A stretch of DNA of 64,000 bases from the NCBI GenBank assembly GCA_039908345.1, contig JAMOBD010000006.1, positions 2,329 through 66,328 of the forward strand. Reading direction: 5' to 3'. Below, one piece after another: positions 5,482 through 18,855 of this stretch (position 1 is its first letter; each line of letters starts with the position of its first letter). Position numbers and translations under genes: made by a program. A model generated the notes under the pieces. The model was not told the DNA's origin and ran no database searches. It was given only the letters and a program-made list of their open reading frames with translations. This DNA comes from Magnetospirillum sp. WYHS-4 (GTDB taxonomy: Bacteria > Pseudomonadota > Alphaproteobacteria > Rhodospirillales > GLO-3).

Positions 5482-8400
5482 CTACCCTGCCGGCTGCATG
5501 GTGACCAGCAGGTCCTTGGCGTCGACGGCGTCGCCCGAGGCCACATGAACCCGAACCACCGTCCCGTCGCATTCGGCGCGCACGGCGGTTTCCATCTTCA
5601 TCGCTTCGACGGCCAGCAGCACGTCGCCGCGCGCCACCGTCTGGCCGACCAGGACGGCCACGCTGACCACCGTTCCGGGCATGGGCGCTCCCACTTCGCA
5701 GGGATTGCCCTCGGCCGCCTTGGGGCGGGCATGGCGGGTCGGCGTGCGCGAACGGTCGACGACCCGAACGGAACGCGGCTGGCCGTTCAATTCGAAGAAG
5801 ACGGTGGCCTCGCCCGCATCGTCGGCCGGGCTTTTGGCCAGGTAGCGGACGATCAGGGTCTTGCCGGCGTCGATATCCAGCATGATCTCCTGTTCCGGCA
5901 CCATGCCGTGGAAGAAGACCGGGGTCGGCAGGACGCTCACGTCGCCGAAAGACTTCAGGTGCTCGGCGTACTCCAGAAACACCTTGGGATACATCAGCCA
6001 GGAGGCGAGATCGTTGTCGTCGATCTGGCGGCCGACCTTGTGTTCCACCTGAGCCTTGACGGCATCCAGATCGACCGGCCTCAGCACCTCGCCGGGCCGC
6101 ACCGTCAACGGCGTCTCGCCCTTCAAGACCTTCTTCTGCAAGGCCTCGGGGAAGCCGCCCACCGGCTGGCCCATCTCGCCCTTGAAGAACGAGACCACGG
6201 ATTCCGGGAACGCGATCTCGCGCGCCGGGTCCATGACCATTTCGGGGGTCAGGCTGTTGGTCACCATCATCAGCGCCATGTCGCCCACCACCTTGGATGA
6301 CGGGGTCACCTTGACGATGTCGCCGAACATCTCGTTGACCTGGGCATAGGCGCGGGCGATGTCGGGCCAGTGCTTTTCCAGACCCAGGGAGCGGGCCTGT
6401 TCCTTCAGGTTGGTGAACTGGCCGCCCGGCATCTCGTGCAGGTAGACCTCGGAGGCGCCGGAGTACTGGTGCGCCTCGAAGGCGCCGTAGTTCTTGCGCA
6501 CTTCCTCCCAGTAGGTGGAGACGGACCGGATGGCTTCCGCCGCCAGGCCGGTATCCCGCGGATGGCCGCGCAGCGCCTCGACGATGGACCCCAGGCAGGG
6601 CTGCGAGGTGGTGCCGCTCATGGAATCCATGGCGGCGTCCACCGCGTCGCAGCCCGCTTCCACCGCCGCCAACACGCTGGCGGCGCTAAGGCCGCTGGTG
6701 TCATGGGTGTGGAAATGGATGGGGATGCCGATCTCGTCCTTCAGGGCCTTGACCAGCAGGGTGGCGGCATGGGGCTTCAGCAGGCCGGCCATGTCCTTGA
6801 TGCCCAGGATGTGGGCGCCGGCCTTTTCCAACTCCTTGGCCATGGCGACGTAGTATCCCAGGCTGTACTTGGTGCGCCTGGGGTCCTGGATGTCGCCGGT
6901 ATAGCAGATGGCGGCCTCGCAAAGCTTGCCGGTCTCGCAGACGGCGTCCATGGCGACACGCATGTTCTCGACCCAGTTGAGCGAGTCGAAGACCCGGAAC
7001 AGGTCCATGCCGGCTTCCGCCGAACGCTTGACGAAGAACTTCACCACGTTGTCGGGGTAGTTGGTGTAGCCGACGCCGTTGGCCGAACGCAGCAGCATCT
7101 GGGTCAGCAGGTTGGGCAGGCGTTCGCGCAGGTTCGCCAAACGCTCCCAGGGGTCCTCCTTGAGGAAGCGCATGGCCACGTCGAAGGTCGCGCCCCCCCA
7201 GCATTCCAGGGACAGCAGTTCCGGCAGCAGCCGCGCGTAGGCGGGCGCCACGGCCAGCATGTCGTGGCTGCGCATGCGGGTGGCGAGCAGGGACTGATGG
7301 GCGTCGCGCATGGTGGTGTCGGTGACGAAGACCCGCCGCCCGGCTTCTTCCAGCATCCACTTCGAAAAGCCTTGGGCGCCCAGTTCGTCCAGCTTCTGGC
7401 GCGTGCCGGCTTCCCAGCCTTCGGCCAGGGGGCCGGGCAGGGTGGGGGCGACGAAGGCGTCGGGGGCCTTGCGGCCCTTCACCTCGGGATTGCCGTTGAC
7501 CATCACCTCGCCGATGAAATTCAACAGGCGGGTGGCGCGGTCGCGGCGCTTGGGGATGTGGAACAGCTCCGGCGTGTCGTCGATGAAGGTGGTGATGTAG
7601 TCGCCTTCGACGAAGCGCGGATGGTTCACCACGTTTTCCAGGAAACGCAGGTTGGTCTTCACCCCGCGCACCCGGAATTCGCGGAGCGCGCGATCCATGC
7701 GGAAGACGGCATCCTGGGCGTCCTGAGCCCAGGCGGTCACCTTGACCAACAGGCTGTCGTAGGACCGGGTGATGCGCGCACCCGTGTAGGCGGTGCCGGC
7801 GTCCAGGCGGATGCCGAAGCCGGCCGGGCTGCGATAGGCGGTGATCTGGCCGTAGTCGGGGGCGAAGTCGGACTCCGGGTCCTCGGCGGTGACGCGGCAC
7901 TGCAGGGCATGTCCCATCAAGGGGATGTCCTTTTGCGCCGGCAGGCCGCTGCCGGCCTCGCCGATCTTCTTGCCTTCGGCGACCAGGATCTGGGACCGGA
8001 TCAGGTCGTAGCCGGTGACGCATTCGGAAACCGTGTGTTCCACCTGGATGCGCGGATTGACTTCGATGAAGTAGAAGGCCCCGGTGTCGGCGTCCTGCAG
8101 GAATTCCACCGTACCGGCGTTGCGATAGTCGGCGGCGCGGGCCAGCTTCAGGGCGTAGGCCGTCAACTCGTCGCGCTGGCTCGCAGTCAAATAGGGGGCG
8201 GGGGCGCGCTCCACCACCTTCTGATGGCGGCGCTGGACCGTACAGTCGCGCTCGTGGAAATGAACCACGTTGCCATGGGCGTCGCCCAGGATCTGCACTT
8301 CCACGTGGCGGGCACGGCGCACCAGCTTTTCCAGGTAGACCTCGTCGTTGCCGAAGGCCGCCTTGGCCTCGCGCCGGGCAGCCGCCACGCTGTCCAGCAG

Positions 8401-8949
8401 GGAATCCGCGCCTTCGACCACGCGCATGCCCCGCCCGCCACCGCCCCAACTCGCCTTAATCATCACCGGATAGCCGACCTTTCCGGCCACCGCCAATATC
8501 TCCTTGCCGTCGGCGGGCAGCGGATCGGTGGCCGGCATGACCGGGATACCGGCCTTGATCGCCATCTCGCGGGCCAGCACCTTGTTGCCAAGCGCCCGCA
8601 TGGTCTCGGGCGTCGGGCCAACGAAGATCAGCCCGCCGGCCGCGCAGGCCTCGGCGAAGTCGGGGTTCTCGGCCAGGAAGCCGTAGCCGGGATGGATGGC
8701 CTGGGCCTTGGCTTCGTGGGCGATGCGGATGATGTCGGGGATGTCCAGATAGGCCTCGACCGGCTTCTTGCCTTTGCCCACCATGTAGCTTTCGTCCGCC
8801 TTGTAGCGGTGCAGGGCGAAGCGGTCTTCCTGGGAATAGATGGCGACCGTCTGGATGCCCAGTTCGGTGGCGGCGCGCATGACGCGAATGGCGATCTCAC
8901 CCCGGTTGGCGACCAGGATCTTCCGGATTCCGCCCTGACGGTGCCTCAT
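5482..8949 (-). CDS. pyc: pyruvate carboxylase
   Basis: ORF 5482..9000 trimmed to MRHRQGGIRKILVANRGEIAIR. Biotin carboxylase, carboxyltransferase (HFHTHDTSG) and biotinyl (EAMKME) modules in a ~1155-aa chain. Confidence 0.95.
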   Translation of the reverse strand: MRHRQGGIRKILVANRGEIAIRVMRAATELGIQTVAIYSQEDRFALHRYKADESYMVGKGKKPVEAYLDIPDIIRIAHEAKAQAIHPGYGFLAENPDFAEACAAGGLIFVGPTPETMRALGNKVLAREMAIKAGIPVMPATDPLPADGKEILAVAGKVGYPVMIKASWGGGGRGMRVVEGADSLLDSVAAARREAKAAFGNDEVYLEKLVRRARHVEVQILGDAHGNVVHFHERDCTVQRRHQKVVERAPAPYLTASQRDELTAYALKLARAADYRNAGTVEFLQDADTGAFYFIEVNPRIQVEHTVSECVTGYDLIRSQILVAEGKKIGEAGSGLPAQKDIPLMGHALQCRVTAEDPESDFAPDYGQITAYRSPAGFGIRLDAGTAYTGARITRSYDSLLVKVTAWAQDAQDAVFRMDRALREFRVRGVKTNLRFLENVVNHPRFVEGDYITTFIDDTPELFHIPKRRDRATRLLNFIGEVMVNGNPEVKGRKAPDAFVAPTLPGPLAEGWEAGTRQKLDELGAQGFSKWMLEEAGRRVFVTDTTMRDAHQSLLATRMRSHDMLAVAPAYARLLPELLSLECWGGATFDVAMRFLKEDPWERLANLRERLPNLLTQMLLRSANGVGYTNYPDNVVKFFVKRSAEAGMDLFRVFDSLNWVENMRVAMDAVCETGKLCEAAICYTGDIQDPRRTKYSLGYYVAMAKELEKAGAHILGIKDMAGLLKPHAATLLVKALKDEIGIPIHFHTHDTSGLSAASVLAAVEAGCDAVDAAMDSMSGTTSQPCLGSIVEALRGHPRDTGLAAEAIRSVSTYWEEVRKNYGAFEAHQYSGASEVYLHEMPGGQFTNLKEQARSLGLEKHWPDIARAYAQVNEMFGDIVKVTPSSKVVGDMALMMVTNSLTPEMVMDPAREIAFPESVVSFFKGEMGQPVGGFPEALQKKVLKGETPLTVRPGEVLRPVDLDAVKAQVEHKVGRQIDDNDLASWLMYPKVFLEYAEHLKSFGDVSVLPTPVFFHGMVPEQEIMLDIDAGKTLIVRYLAKSPADDAGEATVFFELNGQPRSVRVVDRSRTPTRHARPKAAEGNPCEVGAPMPGTVVSVAVLVGQTVARGDVLLAVEAMKMETAVRAECDGTVVRVHVASGDAVDAKDLLVTMQPAG

Positions 8950-9041
8950 GACGACTCCTGCGGCCCTGCGGCCGTCCCACGGGTTGGGGCTTTTGTGCAA
9001 GTGCGAAATATGCTTCGAGATGAAGCCTCGCGCAACAGGAA

Positions 9042-14302: not shown

Positions 14303-14668
14303 ATGAAAAGCCAGATCGTCTACAAGGACCACCGCCGCAAGGACATGCGAATCCCGACGCCGGAACTGGCCCTGCTGGTCGACGGGCGGATCTGGCGCAC
14401 GTTGGACTGGAGTCTCGGCGGCTTCCTGCTGCGCCACTACCGTGGCCACCTGAAGGCCGGCGACCGCTTCGAAGTGCGAGGCATCGGGGGCATCGGCGGC
14501 GCTCTGGCCCCCGTCTTCCTGCGCGCCCGGGTCGTGCGGGTGGAACGGGGCGGCCGCTTGGCGGCCCAGTTCCTCGGACTATCCGAGGCTGGGTTCGAGA
14601 CCTTGGAAAGCCTGATGATCCACCGCGCGACGCTACACCACCAACCCGCCCATCACGCCATTCCATAG
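14303..14668 (+). CDS. PilZ-domain (c-di-GMP-binding) protein
   Basis: ORF 14303..14668. RRxxxR (RRKDMR) and DxSxxG (DWSLGG) motifs. Confidence 0.75.
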   Translation: MKSQIVYKDHRRKDMRIPTPELALLVDGRIWRTLDWSLGGFLLRHYRGHLKAGDRFEVRGIGGIGGALAPVFLRARVVRVERGGRLAAQFLGLSEAGFETLESLMIHRATLHHQPAHHAIP

Positions 14669-14717: not shown

Positions 14718-16040
14718 TTAGGAAGCCGATCCGTGGTTGCAGTCGTTGGCTTTGCGGCAGCCGTCGCAAATGCGGGCCACTTCGTCGATATCGGGTGCCA
14801 GAGGACAAGGCAATTTGGTCAAGCGCCAAATCCTGACCTCCGAGTCCTCGGCGATATCCTTGCTTGCATAAGGAACCTTTTCGCCCCCGATATCGCAGGC
14901 GCGAAGGTCCTTGGCGAGTTCGTGATAGGCATTGCCCGACATCTGGATGATTCCGGCCTTGGCGGAATCGGACAGGCGGCAGGCCTCCACCACCCCGCGG
15001 CCGACGACAATGGGATTTTGCGTATGGTCGAGCCGCCAGTGGGCATCGGCGACGGAAATTCCGACGCCAGCCCCGAAGTCGGCGCGGTCATGATGGAGAA
15101 ACTCCCGCAGATCCTTCAGCAGGCACTCGACCGCCGCGATCAGGGCGCCGGCGCAGCGGACCGCCACCGTCACCGGGCTCTCCTTCTTGAGTTCCCTGAC
15201 TTCCTCGTCCAGGAAATGGACGATGATGCCGTCCCCGGTGAACTTGTCGAACACCCCAAGGTTCTGCCGGACGATGGTCGACAGGACCGTCAGCAACACA
15301 TCCATCCAGCAGGCGAAATGCTTGGGACTGTCGGCTTCCCGCATGGCGAAGGTCGATTTGCGCAGGTCGAGGGTCAGAGTGACGGTGCGGCGGCGCCCGT
15401 TCCAGGGCGGCAACAGGCGCCGTATCCCTTCCCGAGCCTTGCCGACATGGAGACTTTCGGAATCCCAATACCTGCGGGAAATCTCCGGCGCGAACCCCCG
15501 ATAGACGTTGCAGCGCTGGCGCATGGCCTCGATCAGAATCTCGGCGATGGTTACCCATTCCTGATAGTCGGTCTTGCTAAATGCTGCAGCCAAATCCAGT
15601 TCAGGAGCGCTCGTCGAAGGCAATTCATCGTATTTTGTGCCTTTCAACATAAACACCACGAATGCCTTGTCAGCGCGGCTACTCTGTGGCCACACGACAA
15701 CCATCTTGACACCGGAACCGCACGCCGAGCTTGTTATTGCCCGAATTTCATGGACATCCGTCTGCGGTACATTTTGCGAGGCGACTCGAACCGCAGCATC
15801 AAATATAGAAACAATTTTGTCCTTATATTTAATGCGAAACGCAGAGCGCAACGATATGAAGCTGTAACTCCACCATGGCAACCAAACTGAGATTCCGTCT
15901 ACATTGAAGGTTCCTAGGATGCTCCTGATGGCGCGAGACAGATTAATGTCGACATCTGTTGTGTGCCCAATCTGTCCCGTAAGCGTAGACACAATAACAG
16001 GTACGGTCTTCAGGCAATTATTTTGGTTAATGCGTGTCAT
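14718..16040 (-). CDS. class III nucleotidyl-cyclase-domain protein with an unknown ~220-aa N-terminal domain
   Basis: ORF 14718..16052 trimmed to ATG 16040 (ATGA overlap with the REC gene stop). C-terminal half has LTLDLRKSTF, FDKFTGDGIIVHF, GAGVGISVADAHW and VVGRGVVEACRLSDSAKAGIIQMS, matching the cyclase homology domain layout. Confidence 0.75.
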   Translation of the reverse strand: MTRINQNNCLKTVPVIVSTLTGQIGHTTDVDINLSRAIRSILGTFNVDGISVWLPWWSYSFISLRSAFRIKYKDKIVSIFDAAVRVASQNVPQTDVHEIRAITSSACGSGVKMVVVWPQSSRADKAFVVFMLKGTKYDELPSTSAPELDLAAAFSKTDYQEWVTIAEILIEAMRQRCNVYRGFAPEISRRYWDSESLHVGKAREGIRRLLPPWNGRRRTVTLTLDLRKSTFAMREADSPKHFACWMDVLLTVLSTIVRQNLGVFDKFTGDGIIVHFLDEEVRELKKESPVTVAVRCAGALIAAVECLLKDLREFLHHDRADFGAGVGISVADAHWRLDHTQNPIVVGRGVVEACRLSDSAKAGIIQMSGNAYHELAKDLRACDIGGEKVPYASKDIAEDSEVRIWRLTKLPCPLAPDIDEVARICDGCRKANDCNHGSAS

Positions 16041-16567
16041 ATTTTCACACAAGACACTATGAAATCTATAGAATTGGCAATTCTTGCAACAAAGCTAACG
16101 ATATTCACGGGTTTATGAAAAATATTGTCGCTTTTTATTTCTTGAACAACCACATCAGGGAGATCTTGAGGATATGCCGTCAGAAAGAAAATTTGATGCG
16201 TTGGTCGATCCTTAATTCCCTGCAAGACATTGATGCCAACCGGCTCCATGCCATTTTCTGTCTGACGGAACAGGTCCAGGATGATCAGCGCCGGCGCCCC
16301 ATCGAGCTTCTCCACCTCCATGGTAAAGTTCTCAGTCTTTTCGAGAATCCGGTAACCGATTCGAATCTTCTGGCCGTAGCGTTCGAGCGTCAGGTCGGCG
16401 CTCAGGTCATCATCGGCTTCCCGAAGGGCATCGTCGTCATCCAGCAAGGACGGATCTTCCGCACAGTAATGGTCATAAAGGGCAGCGGGGATCCAGGAGA
16501 CGACCTCCGGCTCGTCCTCGTAATGCAACACCATGACTTGGATCGGGGAAGGGGAGGTTTCGGTCAT
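16037..16567 (-). CDS. stand-alone response-regulator receiver (REC) protein with an acidic insertion
   Basis: ORF 16037..16567. VMVLHYEDEP (acidic pair), ALIILDL (phospho-acceptor Asp), IFFLTAY (Thr) and FHKP (Lys) match CheY-type REC landmarks. ATGA overlaps on both sides. Confidence 0.7.
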   Translation of the reverse strand: MTETSPSPIQVMVLHYEDEPEVVSWIPAALYDHYCAEDPSLLDDDDALREADDDLSADLTLERYGQKIRIGYRILEKTENFTMEVEKLDGAPALIILDLFRQTENGMEPVGINVLQGIKDRPTHQIFFLTAYPQDLPDVVVQEIKSDNIFHKPVNIVSFVARIANSIDFIVSCVKI

Positions 16568-18855
16568 AGGTATCTCGGCGCCTTGGGAAGGAAGATGGTG
16601 AAGACGGTCAACGCACCGTCGGTTCCGGTACGGCCACGCAGGGTCGACTGGATCTCGATCCGGGCCTGGGAATCGTGGGCTTGCAGGATCTTCCGGGCGA
16701 CCGCCACCCCCAATCCCGTTCCCGGACGCCGGGCGTCGGGATTGGCGGCATGGAGGCGCCGAAAGGGTTCGAAAATGGCCTCCCGCTGCTCTTCCGGGAT
16801 GTGATCGCCCACGTTGGACACGGCAATGGCCCAGCCGCCGGCCCGATACGGCTTGACGTCGATCTGTACGATCTGATCCCGATAGGAATACTTGACCGCG
16901 TTTTCGATGATGTTGAACAGCAGGATGTAGACGAGATCGCGATCCATCTTGCCGGTTCGCGAAGGCTTGGGCAGCATATGACCATTGACGATGATGTCGA
17001 GCCCCCGCCGCTCCGCCTCCGGCCGCAGGCAGAGGGTGACCTCGGCAATCAGGTCGAGGATGTCGCAGTCGATCACCTTCAGCGACTCCGGCGCGATGCG
17101 GTCCAGGATGAAGCGGGATTCGTCGACCAGGATGCGCGTCTTCTCGGCGAACAGGCGGGCCCGCGCCAGGCTTTTATGGAACCGGGCACTATCGACCAGG
17201 CGCCGGAAAGCCAGCGAGGGGTCCCGGTCCTTGAAATTCCGCCACCTAGTGTTGGCCACGGTCATATGGCCGATCATTCCCTGCAGCCCCGAGCGGACAT
17301 TGTGGCGAATTTGAATCAGGTCCTCGACCTTGCTTTTCATGTGGTGCTTGTCGGACAGGAAGCGGGCGACTTCCCGGCAGAGGTAGCGGACGATGTCCCG
17401 CTTGTACCCCGGCAGCCAGGGGTCCATGATGCCGACCGCCATGACCGCCTTCCGATTGTCGATATCGAAAAGCTTCTGAATCAGAACGGCCTGGCCGTTC
17501 GGCAGATTCGCCACCCCGTCGGGCCAATGGACGGTGCGGCGCAGGTCGTCTTCCAGGGTCTGGAACCGAGCGTCGCTCAGCGTGACCTGCCCGTCCGCAT
17601 CCACGATGGCGCTGAACTGGGTTTCCGGAATGGTTTCCGCCAACAGGTCGAAGGCCACCCTGGGCTCGAAGTTGTCGGAAGTCCCGATTTCCGCCAGTCG
17701 CCGCGCAATGCCCTGCAGCGCCCCTTGCAGGGTCGCCACGGGAACGATGTTCGACAAGGCTTCGGCGATCTTCTCCACCATTTTCTGATCGGTCTCGCTG
17801 AAGGCCGTGTAGACGCGGCTGAGGGGATTCTTCTTGAACGCCTGAATCAGGCAGATCACGCCCTTTTCCGACTTGTCCGGCTCCAGCCCCACCGCATCCA
17901 CCAGGACCGGCACACACATCCAGGACAGGCGATGTCCGGGGCGCAGTACACTCTGGAATCCGGAGGGCGTGGGCCCGAACAGGGTCTCCATCTCGGCGAC
18001 GTCCAACCGATCCCGCACCCGCACCGATTTCCTGTTCTGCCAAACCTGGCGGAGAAACGGGTTGTTTTCGATGGGGGGAACCCGAAGCTTGGGCGGATGT
18101 GGCGCCGAATACGCGACAACCCCGGACGCCTGGGAGATGTGGGGATAGGATATCGTGCAAAGCGCAGCCCGCGTATCGCGCCGCACGATGGCGGCCGCCG
18201 CTTTCAGCGTCGCATCGATGTCGCCGCGACCGCCTTCCAGGGAGTTCAGTTCCGAAAGCGCGTTCCAGATGCGATGGTTGCGGCTGTTCTCGATCTTGCC
18301 GGCGATGGCCGTGACCAGGGCGCGGCAGGCCTCCGGCAGGCTCTCGCTACGGTGGGGCATGACGATCTGGATCACCCCCAGCGGCTTCCCCGCCTTTTCG
18401 GGATCGTGGCTTTCCAGCGGCAGGAATTCTTCGGCAAGGGCCGTAACATCGGCGCCCTTCCCCGCCAACCATCCCCCGATAACCGCGTTGCCCCGGAAGG
18501 ACAACCGGCCATGAAGCTTGTCCATGTCCGCGGCGTCGGCATCTCCTAGGCACAGGTGGCATCCTTCCAGCCCGCGAGCCACGACCCCGATGGACGCGCC
18601 GCCCTTGTCCAATTCCTTGGCGTAGACCTGATCCAGGCGGATTTCCGGCCCGGAAGCGCCGCTGTCGAACAGCCACTGGAAAAGAAACACCCGAGGCGTT
18701 TCCAGGAGATCGGCCATGAATCTCAGGAGTTCAAGGCGTTCCTCGGTCAACGAGACGCTGGAAAACGGCTGGCTGATCAGTGAAACCAACTTATCGAGGT
18801 TAAGCGTCGCACCGCCGCTTTTTCTCGGGGACAATGAAAACATCCCACACCCCAT
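16564..18855 (-). CDS. soluble sensor histidine kinase with a long GAF-like N-terminal region
   Basis: ORF 16564..18855. No hydrophobic TM segment seen. H-box IQIRHNVRSGL, N-box FNIIENAVKYS, G-boxes SNVGDHI and GTGLGVAVARKI. Start could also be ATG 18843. Confidence 0.8.
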   Translation of the reverse strand: MGCGMFSLSPRKSGGATLNLDKLVSLISQPFSSVSLTEERLELLRFMADLLETPRVFLFQWLFDSGASGPEIRLDQVYAKELDKGGASIGVVARGLEGCHLCLGDADAADMDKLHGRLSFRGNAVIGGWLAGKGADVTALAEEFLPLESHDPEKAGKPLGVIQIVMPHRSESLPEACRALVTAIAGKIENSRNHRIWNALSELNSLEGGRGDIDATLKAAAAIVRRDTRAALCTISYPHISQASGVVAYSAPHPPKLRVPPIENNPFLRQVWQNRKSVRVRDRLDVAEMETLFGPTPSGFQSVLRPGHRLSWMCVPVLVDAVGLEPDKSEKGVICLIQAFKKNPLSRVYTAFSETDQKMVEKIAEALSNIVPVATLQGALQGIARRLAEIGTSDNFEPRVAFDLLAETIPETQFSAIVDADGQVTLSDARFQTLEDDLRRTVHWPDGVANLPNGQAVLIQKLFDIDNRKAVMAVGIMDPWLPGYKRDIVRYLCREVARFLSDKHHMKSKVEDLIQIRHNVRSGLQGMIGHMTVANTRWRNFKDRDPSLAFRRLVDSARFHKSLARARLFAEKTRILVDESRFILDRIAPESLKVIDCDILDLIAEVTLCLRPEAERRGLDIIVNGHMLPKPSRTGKMDRDLVYILLFNIIENAVKYSYRDQIVQIDVKPYRAGGWAIAVSNVGDHIPEEQREAIFEPFRRLHAANPDARRPGTGLGVAVARKILQAHDSQARIEIQSTLRGRTGTDGALTVFTIFLPKAPRYL

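Follow-up and report, generated by a model that had tools for sequence, protein, structure and literature searches.

A divergent class III-type cyclase in a conserved kinase–receiver–cyclase triad of Magnetospirillum sp. WYHS-4: a candidate phosphorelay-gated cyclic-nucleotide synthase

Introduction

Few signalling enzymes are as well understood as the class III cyclases, and an Asn–Arg pair is treated as part of their catalytic signature. In the canonical members the Asn orients the ribose, and the purine is specified by a second pair of residues (Lys with Asp or Thr for ATP, Glu with Cys for GTP). Here we analyse a 64,000-nt stretch of DNA from Magnetospirillum sp. WYHS-4 (assembly GCA_039908345.1, contig JAMOBD010000006.1, positions 2,329 to 66,328 of the forward strand; hereafter the window, in whose own coordinates all positions are given), and within it the gene of a divergent class III-type cyclase that follows the genes of a histidine kinase and of a stand-alone receiver. 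On balance we consider it probable that this gene codes for a phosphorelay-gated cyclic-nucleotide synthase, the output enzyme of a three-gene phosphorelay that is self-contained and horizontally mobile.

Several described systems resemble parts of this arrangement (hereafter the triad). In Pseudomonas aeruginosa the kinase ChpA and the CheY-like protein PilG raise cAMP via the class III cyclase CyaB (PMC3019171), and the likeness to the present locus lies in the path from a kinase through a single-domain receiver to a class III cyclase on another polypeptide. The Pil–Chp pathway is, however, a large chemosensory system with a receptor, an adaptor, FimL and FimV, and its cyclase gene lies outside the kinase operon, whereas the triad is a minimal three-gene cassette whose kinase is unrelated to ChpA. 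CyaC of Spirulina and Anabaena is likewise a phosphorelay-driven class III cyclase, working with GAF-bearing kinases, but there the receiver is fused to the cyclase; in the triad it is separate (or, in one lineage, fused to the kinase) and the cyclase bears a predicted GAF-like domain instead. With the sensor–helix–cyclases (the phytochrome–cyclase chimera 6fht, bPAC/OaPAC, and the GAF-regulated CyaB1/CyaB2 of Anabaena) the target has in common a layout of alpha/beta sensor domain, long helix and cyclase dimer; in contrast to them it is without a recognisable chromophore or cyclic nucleoside monophosphate (cNMP)-binding motif, and a kinase and a receiver, as separate proteins, always accompany it.

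Two defence systems also invite comparison. Detocs is a two-component defence system composed of the kinase DtcA, the stand-alone receiver DtcB, thought to be a buffer, and the receiver-effector DtcC (10.1101/2023.01.24.525353). Like the triad, it combines a kinase and a stand-alone receiver with an enzymatic output in a cassette of three genes, and is patchily distributed; its output protein, however, carries a receiver of its own and is a nucleosidase, whereas the output of the triad has no receiver domain, is GAF-like in its N-terminal part and is a cyclase. The cyclase of Pycsar, PycC, shares a divergent class III fold with the target (BcPycC, 7r65, matched at E 1e-7 with Foldseek), but the adjacent effector of Pycsar (cNMP-binding domain–TIR, or PycTM) is absent from the triad loci, an orphan PycTM at one locus (L101) excepted. 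In the open-access literature that we searched we found no description of the triad, or of the clade of cyclases to which its output belongs, and a 2026 survey of immune cNMP cyclases mentions neither kinases nor receivers.

Results

The cyclase gene is the last of a conserved set of three

The loci surveyed were those of eight homologues, reached through their contigs, and those of 13 species-representative genomes from a motif scan, all searched with profiles of the three proteins. Kinase, receiver and cyclase genes lie in the same order and on the same strand in all 21 core-family loci, the window being counted among them. This context, which the first-pass annotation of the window (made by a model from its letters and open reading frames (ORFs) without database searches) had passed over, we regard as decisive. 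All-against-all clustering of the flanking ORFs revealed no other neighbour shared across the 21 loci, antisense shadow ORFs aside. In the window, ATGA overlaps join all three genes: kinase and receiver genes overlap by 4 nt (16564–16567), and the ATG of the cyclase gene at 16040 overlaps the TGA of the receiver gene. From this arrangement, the three appear to form a translationally coupled operon in the order kinase, receiver, cyclase; a scan for promoters and terminators gave nothing beyond chance.

Both upstream proteins retain what a phosphorelay would need. The kinase matches HATPase_c at 5.8e-16 (Pfam) and retains the H-box, N-box and G-box (alignment A3), with weak GAF signals in the sensor region of its orthologues. 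The receiver gives NCBIfam receiver matches, which are weak; its invariant residues are H15, D18, E19, D98, K152 and P153 (alignment A2), of which D18 and E19 make up the acidic pocket and D98 is the phospho-acceptor. A variable acidic insertion lies between the first strand of the receiver and that of the phospho-acceptor; the orthologues have it as well, though its sequence is not conserved.

Variant forms of the triad were found among the loci and in a metagenomic protein. At L100 a single 889-aa ORF (6335–9004; profile matches at 134–712 and 733–887) joins kinase and receiver, and at L003 and L102 the kinase is divided into separate genes. In P0146, a metagenomic representative of 878 aa, the first ~420 residues match the kinase sensor region and are fused to the N-terminal domain and cyclase; such a fusion would skip the kinase core and the receiver and tie kinase input to cyclase output. 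The two fusions (receiver–kinase in L100, sensor region–cyclase in P0146) thus link parts of the triad.

The triad occurs in Planctomycetota, Acidobacteriota, Binatia, Verrucomicrobiota, Sulfuricella (Betaproteobacteria), Flavobacteriaceae and Magnetococcales, and among the Alphaproteobacteria in Azospirillum, Reyranella, Stappiaceae and Erythrobacter; a search of 40 genomes from the order to which the present one belongs found no member of the cyclase family. The family is small, with 689 matches at E<=1e-3, 183 at 1e-10 and 78 clusters at 1e-30 among 1.84 billion representative proteins. Given its patchy occurrence and its unrelated flanks, the triad is probably a rare, horizontally mobile three-gene set. 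In the window the operon lies slightly below its surroundings in GC content, and a trough (41–49% at ~15600–16300, against 0.60–0.65 in the rest of the operon) coincides exactly with the C-terminal half of the receiver and the N-terminal domain of the cyclase. This weakly hints that the output face of the receiver and the N-terminal domain of the cyclase may have been exchanged, or co-adapted, as one recombined unit.

A class III cyclase homology domain in the output protein

In phmmer searches against PDB sequences the cyclase protein matched CyaB of P. aeruginosa (3r5g) at E 5e-5 over residues 227–390; a profile of the family matched CyaB at 3e-7, and Cya2 and the phytochrome–cyclase chimera at 1e-4 to 5e-5. 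An AlphaFold model of the full protein, built from a 44-sequence alignment, had a mean pLDDT (predicted local distance difference test) of 88.5 and a predicted template modelling (pTM) score of 0.89. The model superposes on CyaB with a template modelling (TM) score of 0.77–0.81 (Foldseek), and its further matches were Cya2, CyaC, Ma1120 and Rv1900c (E 1e-8 to 1e-6), together with a uridylate cyclase. The cyclase homology domain (CHD) proposed in the first-pass annotation is therefore upheld by sequence search, family profile and predicted fold alike. The fold assignment is not in itself new, because some pipelines already label relatives as "class 3 adenylate cyclase" or "adenylate/guanylate cyclase domain-containing protein".

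As to the extent of the gene, the ORF is intact over 14718–16052, with a TTG at 16052 as an alternative start to the ATG at 16040, from which we count the residues (440 aa). The public gene call is only 291 aa long and starts at residue 150, and the N-terminal domain is lost from it. Of 111 homologues retrieved, two span 90% of the protein, and the alignment of the family hidden Markov model begins at residue ~10; since, in addition, the N-terminus folds confidently, we take the 440-aa form to be the real one.

The catalytic residues are kept, with Val fixed in the Asn column

Roles were assigned to residues from HMMER alignments and from a MAFFT alignment in which three canonical cyclases from the same genome were included together with a genuine PycC, and conservation was counted over 44 sequences of the family. 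D225 aligns with the first metal-binding Asp and D270 with the second (each 44/44); K266, the Lys four residues before D270, occupies the base-contacting position (43/44); R355 aligns with the transition-state Arg and K394 with the Lys of the KGK hairpin (both 44/44). The peptides quoted in the first-pass annotation are confirmed (TLTLDLRKST at 15351–15380, FDKFTGDG at 15228–15251, GRGVVEACR at 14976–15002), and both metal-binding Asp residues, the Lys and the Arg, which it had held to be present, stand at the canonical aligned positions, the catalytic Asp pair being equivalent to that of known cyclases. Invariant in all 44 sequences are D225, R227, S229, T230, D265, F267, T268, G269, D270, G271, H275, F276, W335, V350, V351, C354, R355 and K394. 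Invariance of D225, R227, S229 and T230, of the D265–G271 set, and of R355 and K394 indicates selection for catalysis. Two Cys residues of the domain are also conserved, C296 (42/44) and C354 (44/44), the latter beside the catalytic R355; that they serve in redox or metal chemistry is conceivable.

What distinguishes the family is the column of the transition-state Asn. This column is filled by V351; all 44 family members have Val here, as do at least 64 of 66 members of a sister family described below; the corresponding stretches read GREVNLASR in CyaB, GDGVNLASR, GPMVNLASR and GHAVNLAQR in the three cyclases of the same genome, and GRAANHAAK in PycC. An altered transition-state motif had been noticed before, correctly in that the Asn is gone and the Arg kept, but the replacement had been taken to be Glu, which is off by one: V351 holds the Asn column and E352 is the next residue, at a position that varies within the family (the six commonest residues being G 12, N 12, D 8, H 6, Q 2 and E 1). 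The second base determinant is I344, at a position that is I, V, M or L in the family and Thr in the canonical cyclases of the same genome. By alignment, then, the family keeps the full two-metal, phosphate and Arg machinery together with the Lys, and has fixed a hydrophobic residue where an Asn would hold the ribose.

The same picture emerges from comparison with CyaB (3r5g) and Synechocystis Cya2 (2w01), class IIIb enzymes of the same fold (TM 0.73–0.81) that are the best sequence matches in the PDB. Shared with them are the two metal-binding Asp residues, the Lys at −4, a DxRxxT-type phosphate loop, the transition-state Arg and the Lys of the KGK hairpin; compared with them the target has Val for Asn, Ile for the Thr/Asp base determinant, and the extra invariant residues H275, W335, D338 and C354. 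The N-terminus differs too, being a MASE2 membrane domain in CyaB and, by prediction, GAF-like in the target. Because K266 is kept, a purine 3',5'-cNMP is the default guess for the product; given the hydrophobic second base-contacting residue and the missing Asn, no safe call can be made on either the base or the chemistry, and the earlier statement that the substrate is not readable from the sequence is borne out.

The family is distinct from PycC and has a Val-type sister family

The first-pass annotation had pointed to the pyrimidine cyclases, PycC, as possible kin. PADLOC PycC models match the target at best at 1e-8 (PDLC02367). Three housekeeping cyclases of the same genome, however, reach 1e-25 to 1e-32 on PycC models and 1e-13 to 1e-15 on PDLC02367; since these ordinary enzymes score far better, the match of the target is generic. 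A genuine Pycsar pair from the same phylum (L110:395-2199) consists of a cNMP-binding/TIR-like gene followed by a 250-aa PycC (312 bits) with the motifs YADLNGST and SYDGDR and the GRAANHAAK stretch given above, that is, with Tyr and Asp/Arg base contacts and with the Asn retained. Published pyrimidine contacts of PycC enzymes include a Tyr two residues before the first metal-binding Asp and Asp/Arg or Arg/Gln around the second; the Tyr and Asp/Arg contacts are those of BcPycC (PMC11224242). At these sites the triad family has Ser/Thr at −2 and K-F-T-G-D, and the PycC contacts are not present. No PycTIR or PycTM effector is conserved across the 21 loci, and none was found in this genome. We consequently reject membership of PycC, on the strength of the housekeeping-cyclase control and of the comparison with the genuine PycC of L110.

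The motif scan also yielded a larger sister family (L033–L099, at ~60–130 bits to the family profile; e.g. L051:7524-8588 and L046:7464-8609) from Bacteroidota, Planctomycetota, Chloroflexota, Thermoplasmata, Nitrososphaera and others. Its members share FDKFTGDG and VG..VV.ACR with the core family and have a low-complexity or coiled-coil N-terminus; a profile search of their loci found no kinase or receiver near them. A quick maximum-likelihood tree was built from 115 cyclase domains (L011 being omitted for its ambiguous letters), and in it the core family forms one clade with a Shimodaira–Hasegawa-like approximate likelihood-ratio (SH-aLRT) support of 99. Closest to this clade stand members of the sister family from archaea and actinobacteria, although the node that joins core and sister is weakly supported, and a long branch sets both off from the canonical cyclases and PycC. 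Since a wrong reading frame was probably used in extracting one canonical row (L016), whose branch is very long, and since PycC is represented by a single sequence, the tree shows that the Val-type clade is separate, and not which group is its exact sister.

A predicted GAF/PHY-like domain precedes the cyclase domain

The N-terminal part, ~220 aa that the first-pass annotation could not recognise, resolves in the AlphaFold and Foldseek analyses into ~150 aa that model as GAF/PHY-like, followed by a helical linker. In the model of the full protein the domain (residues ~12–150) has two helices and a sheet of five to six strands with a helix in between. Residues 1–200, folded alone with 21 orthologous N-termini (alignment A4; pLDDT 75.9), matched GAF/PHY modules of bacteriophytochromes, the GAF domain of a cyanobacteriochrome kinase and that of PtsP (Foldseek, E 3e-4 to 1e-2, TM ~0.4–0.49), and the top structural match of the full-length model was the phytochrome–cyclase chimera 6fht (E 1.7e-13), with blue-light cyclases aligning along the length too. 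No GAF match was returned by a Pfam scan of the cyclase protein. With moderate confidence, resting on the predicted structure, we read the domain as a sensor-type fold like that of GAF/PHY modules, flanked by signalling helices. It is highly divergent, with a mean column identity of 19% over the 21 aligned N-domains, among which D31 alone is nearly invariant and no conserved ligand residues of a GAF pocket are evident. A common ancestry of this domain with the sensor region of the kinase was considered and rejected, there being no signal (hhalign probability 0.2%). The linker is modelled as a long helix (156–179) and a second one (185–196), with conserved columns at R176, W192 and P212.

At the other end, a Cys-rich tail had been noted, and the protein does end in one (CPLAPDIDEVARICDGCRKANDCNH); it is not a feature of the family, for its Cys residues are not conserved (C412, C428 and C434 are unique or nearly so, C425 is present in 24/44) and the segment is modelled as a helix. 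A zinc site was rejected as a family feature on these two grounds. With a tail that is lineage-specific and predicted to be helical a conserved metal site is unlikely, while a lineage-specific site is conceivable.

Features of the locus and neighbouring genes

The coordinates of the triad and of the parts of the cyclase are collected in Table 1. Convergent with the cyclase gene lies a PilZ-domain gene (14303–14668, plus strand; Pfam 1.2e-5) with the motifs RRKDMR and DWSLGG. It was considered as a partner of the triad and rejected, the clustering of flanking ORFs having placed it beside the triad in no other locus, and because it is not conserved there it is probably unrelated. Nor could an empty site be reconstructed from which the borders of an island might be read, as the PilZ and sat homologues found in four relatives sit on different contigs.

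Table 1. Positions in the window of the triad genes and of the predicted parts of the cyclase
Feature	Coordinates	Strand	Remarks
Cyclase gene	14718..16040	minus	440 aa + stop; ATG at 16040 is the likely start
Cyclase homology domain (CHD)	14820..15392	minus	Residues 217-407; key D225, D270, K266, R227, R355, K394, V351
V351 codon	14988..14990	minus	Canonical transition-state Asn position
N-terminal alpha/beta sensor-like domain	15591..16040	minus	Residues 1-150; GAF/PHY-like by AlphaFold/Foldseek
Helical linker	15393..15590	minus	Residues 151-216; motifs R..R...F..FP...S..YW and PPW; runs into CHD
C-terminal helix with Cys-rich tail	14724..14789	minus	Residues 418-439 (AlphaFold)
Stand-alone receiver	16037..16567	minus	176 aa; ATGA overlaps at both ends
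Soluble histidine kinase	16564..18855	minus	763 aa; ~500-aa sensor region, H-box IRHxVRSGL (H518), HATPase_c

Discussion

The analyses presented here place a divergent class III-type cyclase at the end of a conserved three-gene set, and we suggest the following course of signalling for it. The soluble kinase, by means of its GAF-type sensor region, would sense a cytoplasmic cue, autophosphorylate on H518 and hand the phosphoryl group to D98 of the single-domain receiver. The phosphorylated receiver may then bind to the cyclase, either at the GAF-like N-terminal domain or at the helical linker, and this docking would switch the class III-type cyclase dimer, which in turn would convert a nucleoside triphosphate (NTP) into a cyclic nucleotide. 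That the receiver acts by contact is suggested by its having no output domain and by the cyclase being its only conserved partner, and the N-terminal domain and linker suit the transmission of a signal because modules of this kind drive the dimers of phytochrome-, BLUF- and GAF-linked cyclases. Control of the cyclase by the receiver through the N-terminal domain, the direction of this control and the nature of the product are what we infer from the organization of the genes and proteins.

Several of our results weigh against a phosphorelay-gated cyclic-nucleotide synthase. The Pfam Guanylate_cyc model (PF00211) does not match the cyclase protein at E<=1, nor does it match any of the 44 family members at E<=0.1, so that the protein falls below the threshold of that family, which eight other genes of the same genome do pass. 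Because the Pfam model is silent, homology of the CHD rests on the PDB, PADLOC and fold evidence; failure of profile searches, which the first-pass annotation had named as a refutation, is seen with Pfam only, and the searches of the PDB and with the family profile succeed. With the Asn lost in the whole family, the predicted activity could be low, different or absent. In the 21 loci no cyclic-nucleotide receptor or effector is conserved as part of the module. Finally, the N-terminal domain is so nearly devoid of invariant residues that no site of docking and no pocket for a ligand can be named.

With the same mechanism, the role of the triad might lie in defence, as a mobile anti-phage or anti-plasmid module whose kinase senses infection, in the manner of Detocs but with a cyclase as output; the cyclase would then either make an alarm nucleotide for an effector elsewhere or harm the cell by consuming NTP. 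We hold this to be a possible role, though not a likely one. For it speak the two-component precedent of Detocs itself and the rare, patchy occurrence of the family across many phyla (0/40 genomes of the same order; 78 clusters at E<=1e-30) between unrelated flanks, and so do the surroundings of some loci: L003 is flanked by a CHAT protease, a STAND NTPase and a double-PIN protein, L005 lies near an AAA_15/AAA_21 ATPase of AriA/AbiLi type, L102 lies near HEPN/MNT, and at L101 (6472–8395) an orphan PycTM (PADLOC 9e-24) follows 1.5 kb downstream on a TrwC/ArdC conjugative element. Against it, the triad has no effector gene as a conserved companion, the contexts of L001, L100 and L103 (three of the nine that are annotated) are clearly of a housekeeping kind, each defence family was matched once only among 62 neighbour proteins (PADLOC, raw counts), none of the three proteins has a PADLOC match to Detocs, and the present genome is without PycTM. 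Downstream of the triad at L101 there is also a 444-aa protein without a family match, and no canonical PycC lies nearby. Assignment to Detocs or to another known defence system was rejected, since no specific PADLOC match was obtained and a match to PDC-M43B spans a generic ATPase domain alone.

It is conceivable, and in our estimation rather doubtful, that the triad is a new kind of anti-phage system, in which a His–Asp phosphorelay, and not sensing by the cyclase itself, would trigger a nucleotide signal, possibly a non-canonical one, that acts on effectors in trans. Effectors in trans are hinted at because the orphan PycTM adjoins one locus (L101), and a non-canonical nucleotide is possible because the ribose site is remodelled.

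We think it improbable that the cyclase domain is a pseudo-enzyme, that is, an NTP- or metal-binding module of regulation or dimerization with which the relay ends. Such a view could draw on the transition-state Asn being Val in all members, on I344 being hydrophobic where the cyclases of the same genome have Thr, and on the fact that mutation of the Asn in mammalian and mycobacterial class III cyclases cuts turnover by one to two orders of magnitude. Dead domains, however, normally lose such catalytic residues first, and here the metal-binding Asp residues, the GDG loop, the Arg, the phosphate contacts of DLRKST (Arg/Ser/Thr) and K394 are invariant across phyla; moreover an entire sister family has this Val alongside the same catalytic residues, which suggests a working alternative active site rather than a decayed one.

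Equally improbable, to our mind, is an active domain whose product is not a standard 3',5'-cNMP but another cyclic or linear nucleotide, made in a pocket rebuilt by H275, W335, D338 and C354: the invariant Val at the ribose contact, the family-specific invariant residues missing from canonical cyclases, the long branch that sets core and sister families apart from canonical cyclases and PycC, and the sharing of the cyclase fold with GGDEF and other synthases of nucleotide signals would fit it, but the Lys at the canonical adenine/guanine-contacting position and the active-site layout are those of ordinary purine cyclases.

Returning to the reading that we favour, a mobile phosphorelay with a cyclic-nucleotide synthase as its output, we note that in current annotation the cyclase domain is overlooked by Pfam and the gene call is truncated (291 instead of 440 aa). 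From their sequences, the triad and its cyclase appear to be set apart from receiver-fused cyclase systems by the separate receiver, the GAF-like N-terminal domain of the cyclase and the Val substitution. The Val-type clade, comprising the triad cyclases and the sister family, keeps the other catalytic residues across bacterial and archaeal phyla with Val fixed in place of the Asn; if these enzymes are active, they would need some other means of placing the ribose, and what they make may not be the expected product. The triad itself is a compact, transferable kinase–receiver–cyclase unit, which would offer a clean system for studying the control of a separate enzyme by a single-domain receiver, and it is a candidate for a phosphorelay-driven nucleotide alarm in defence.

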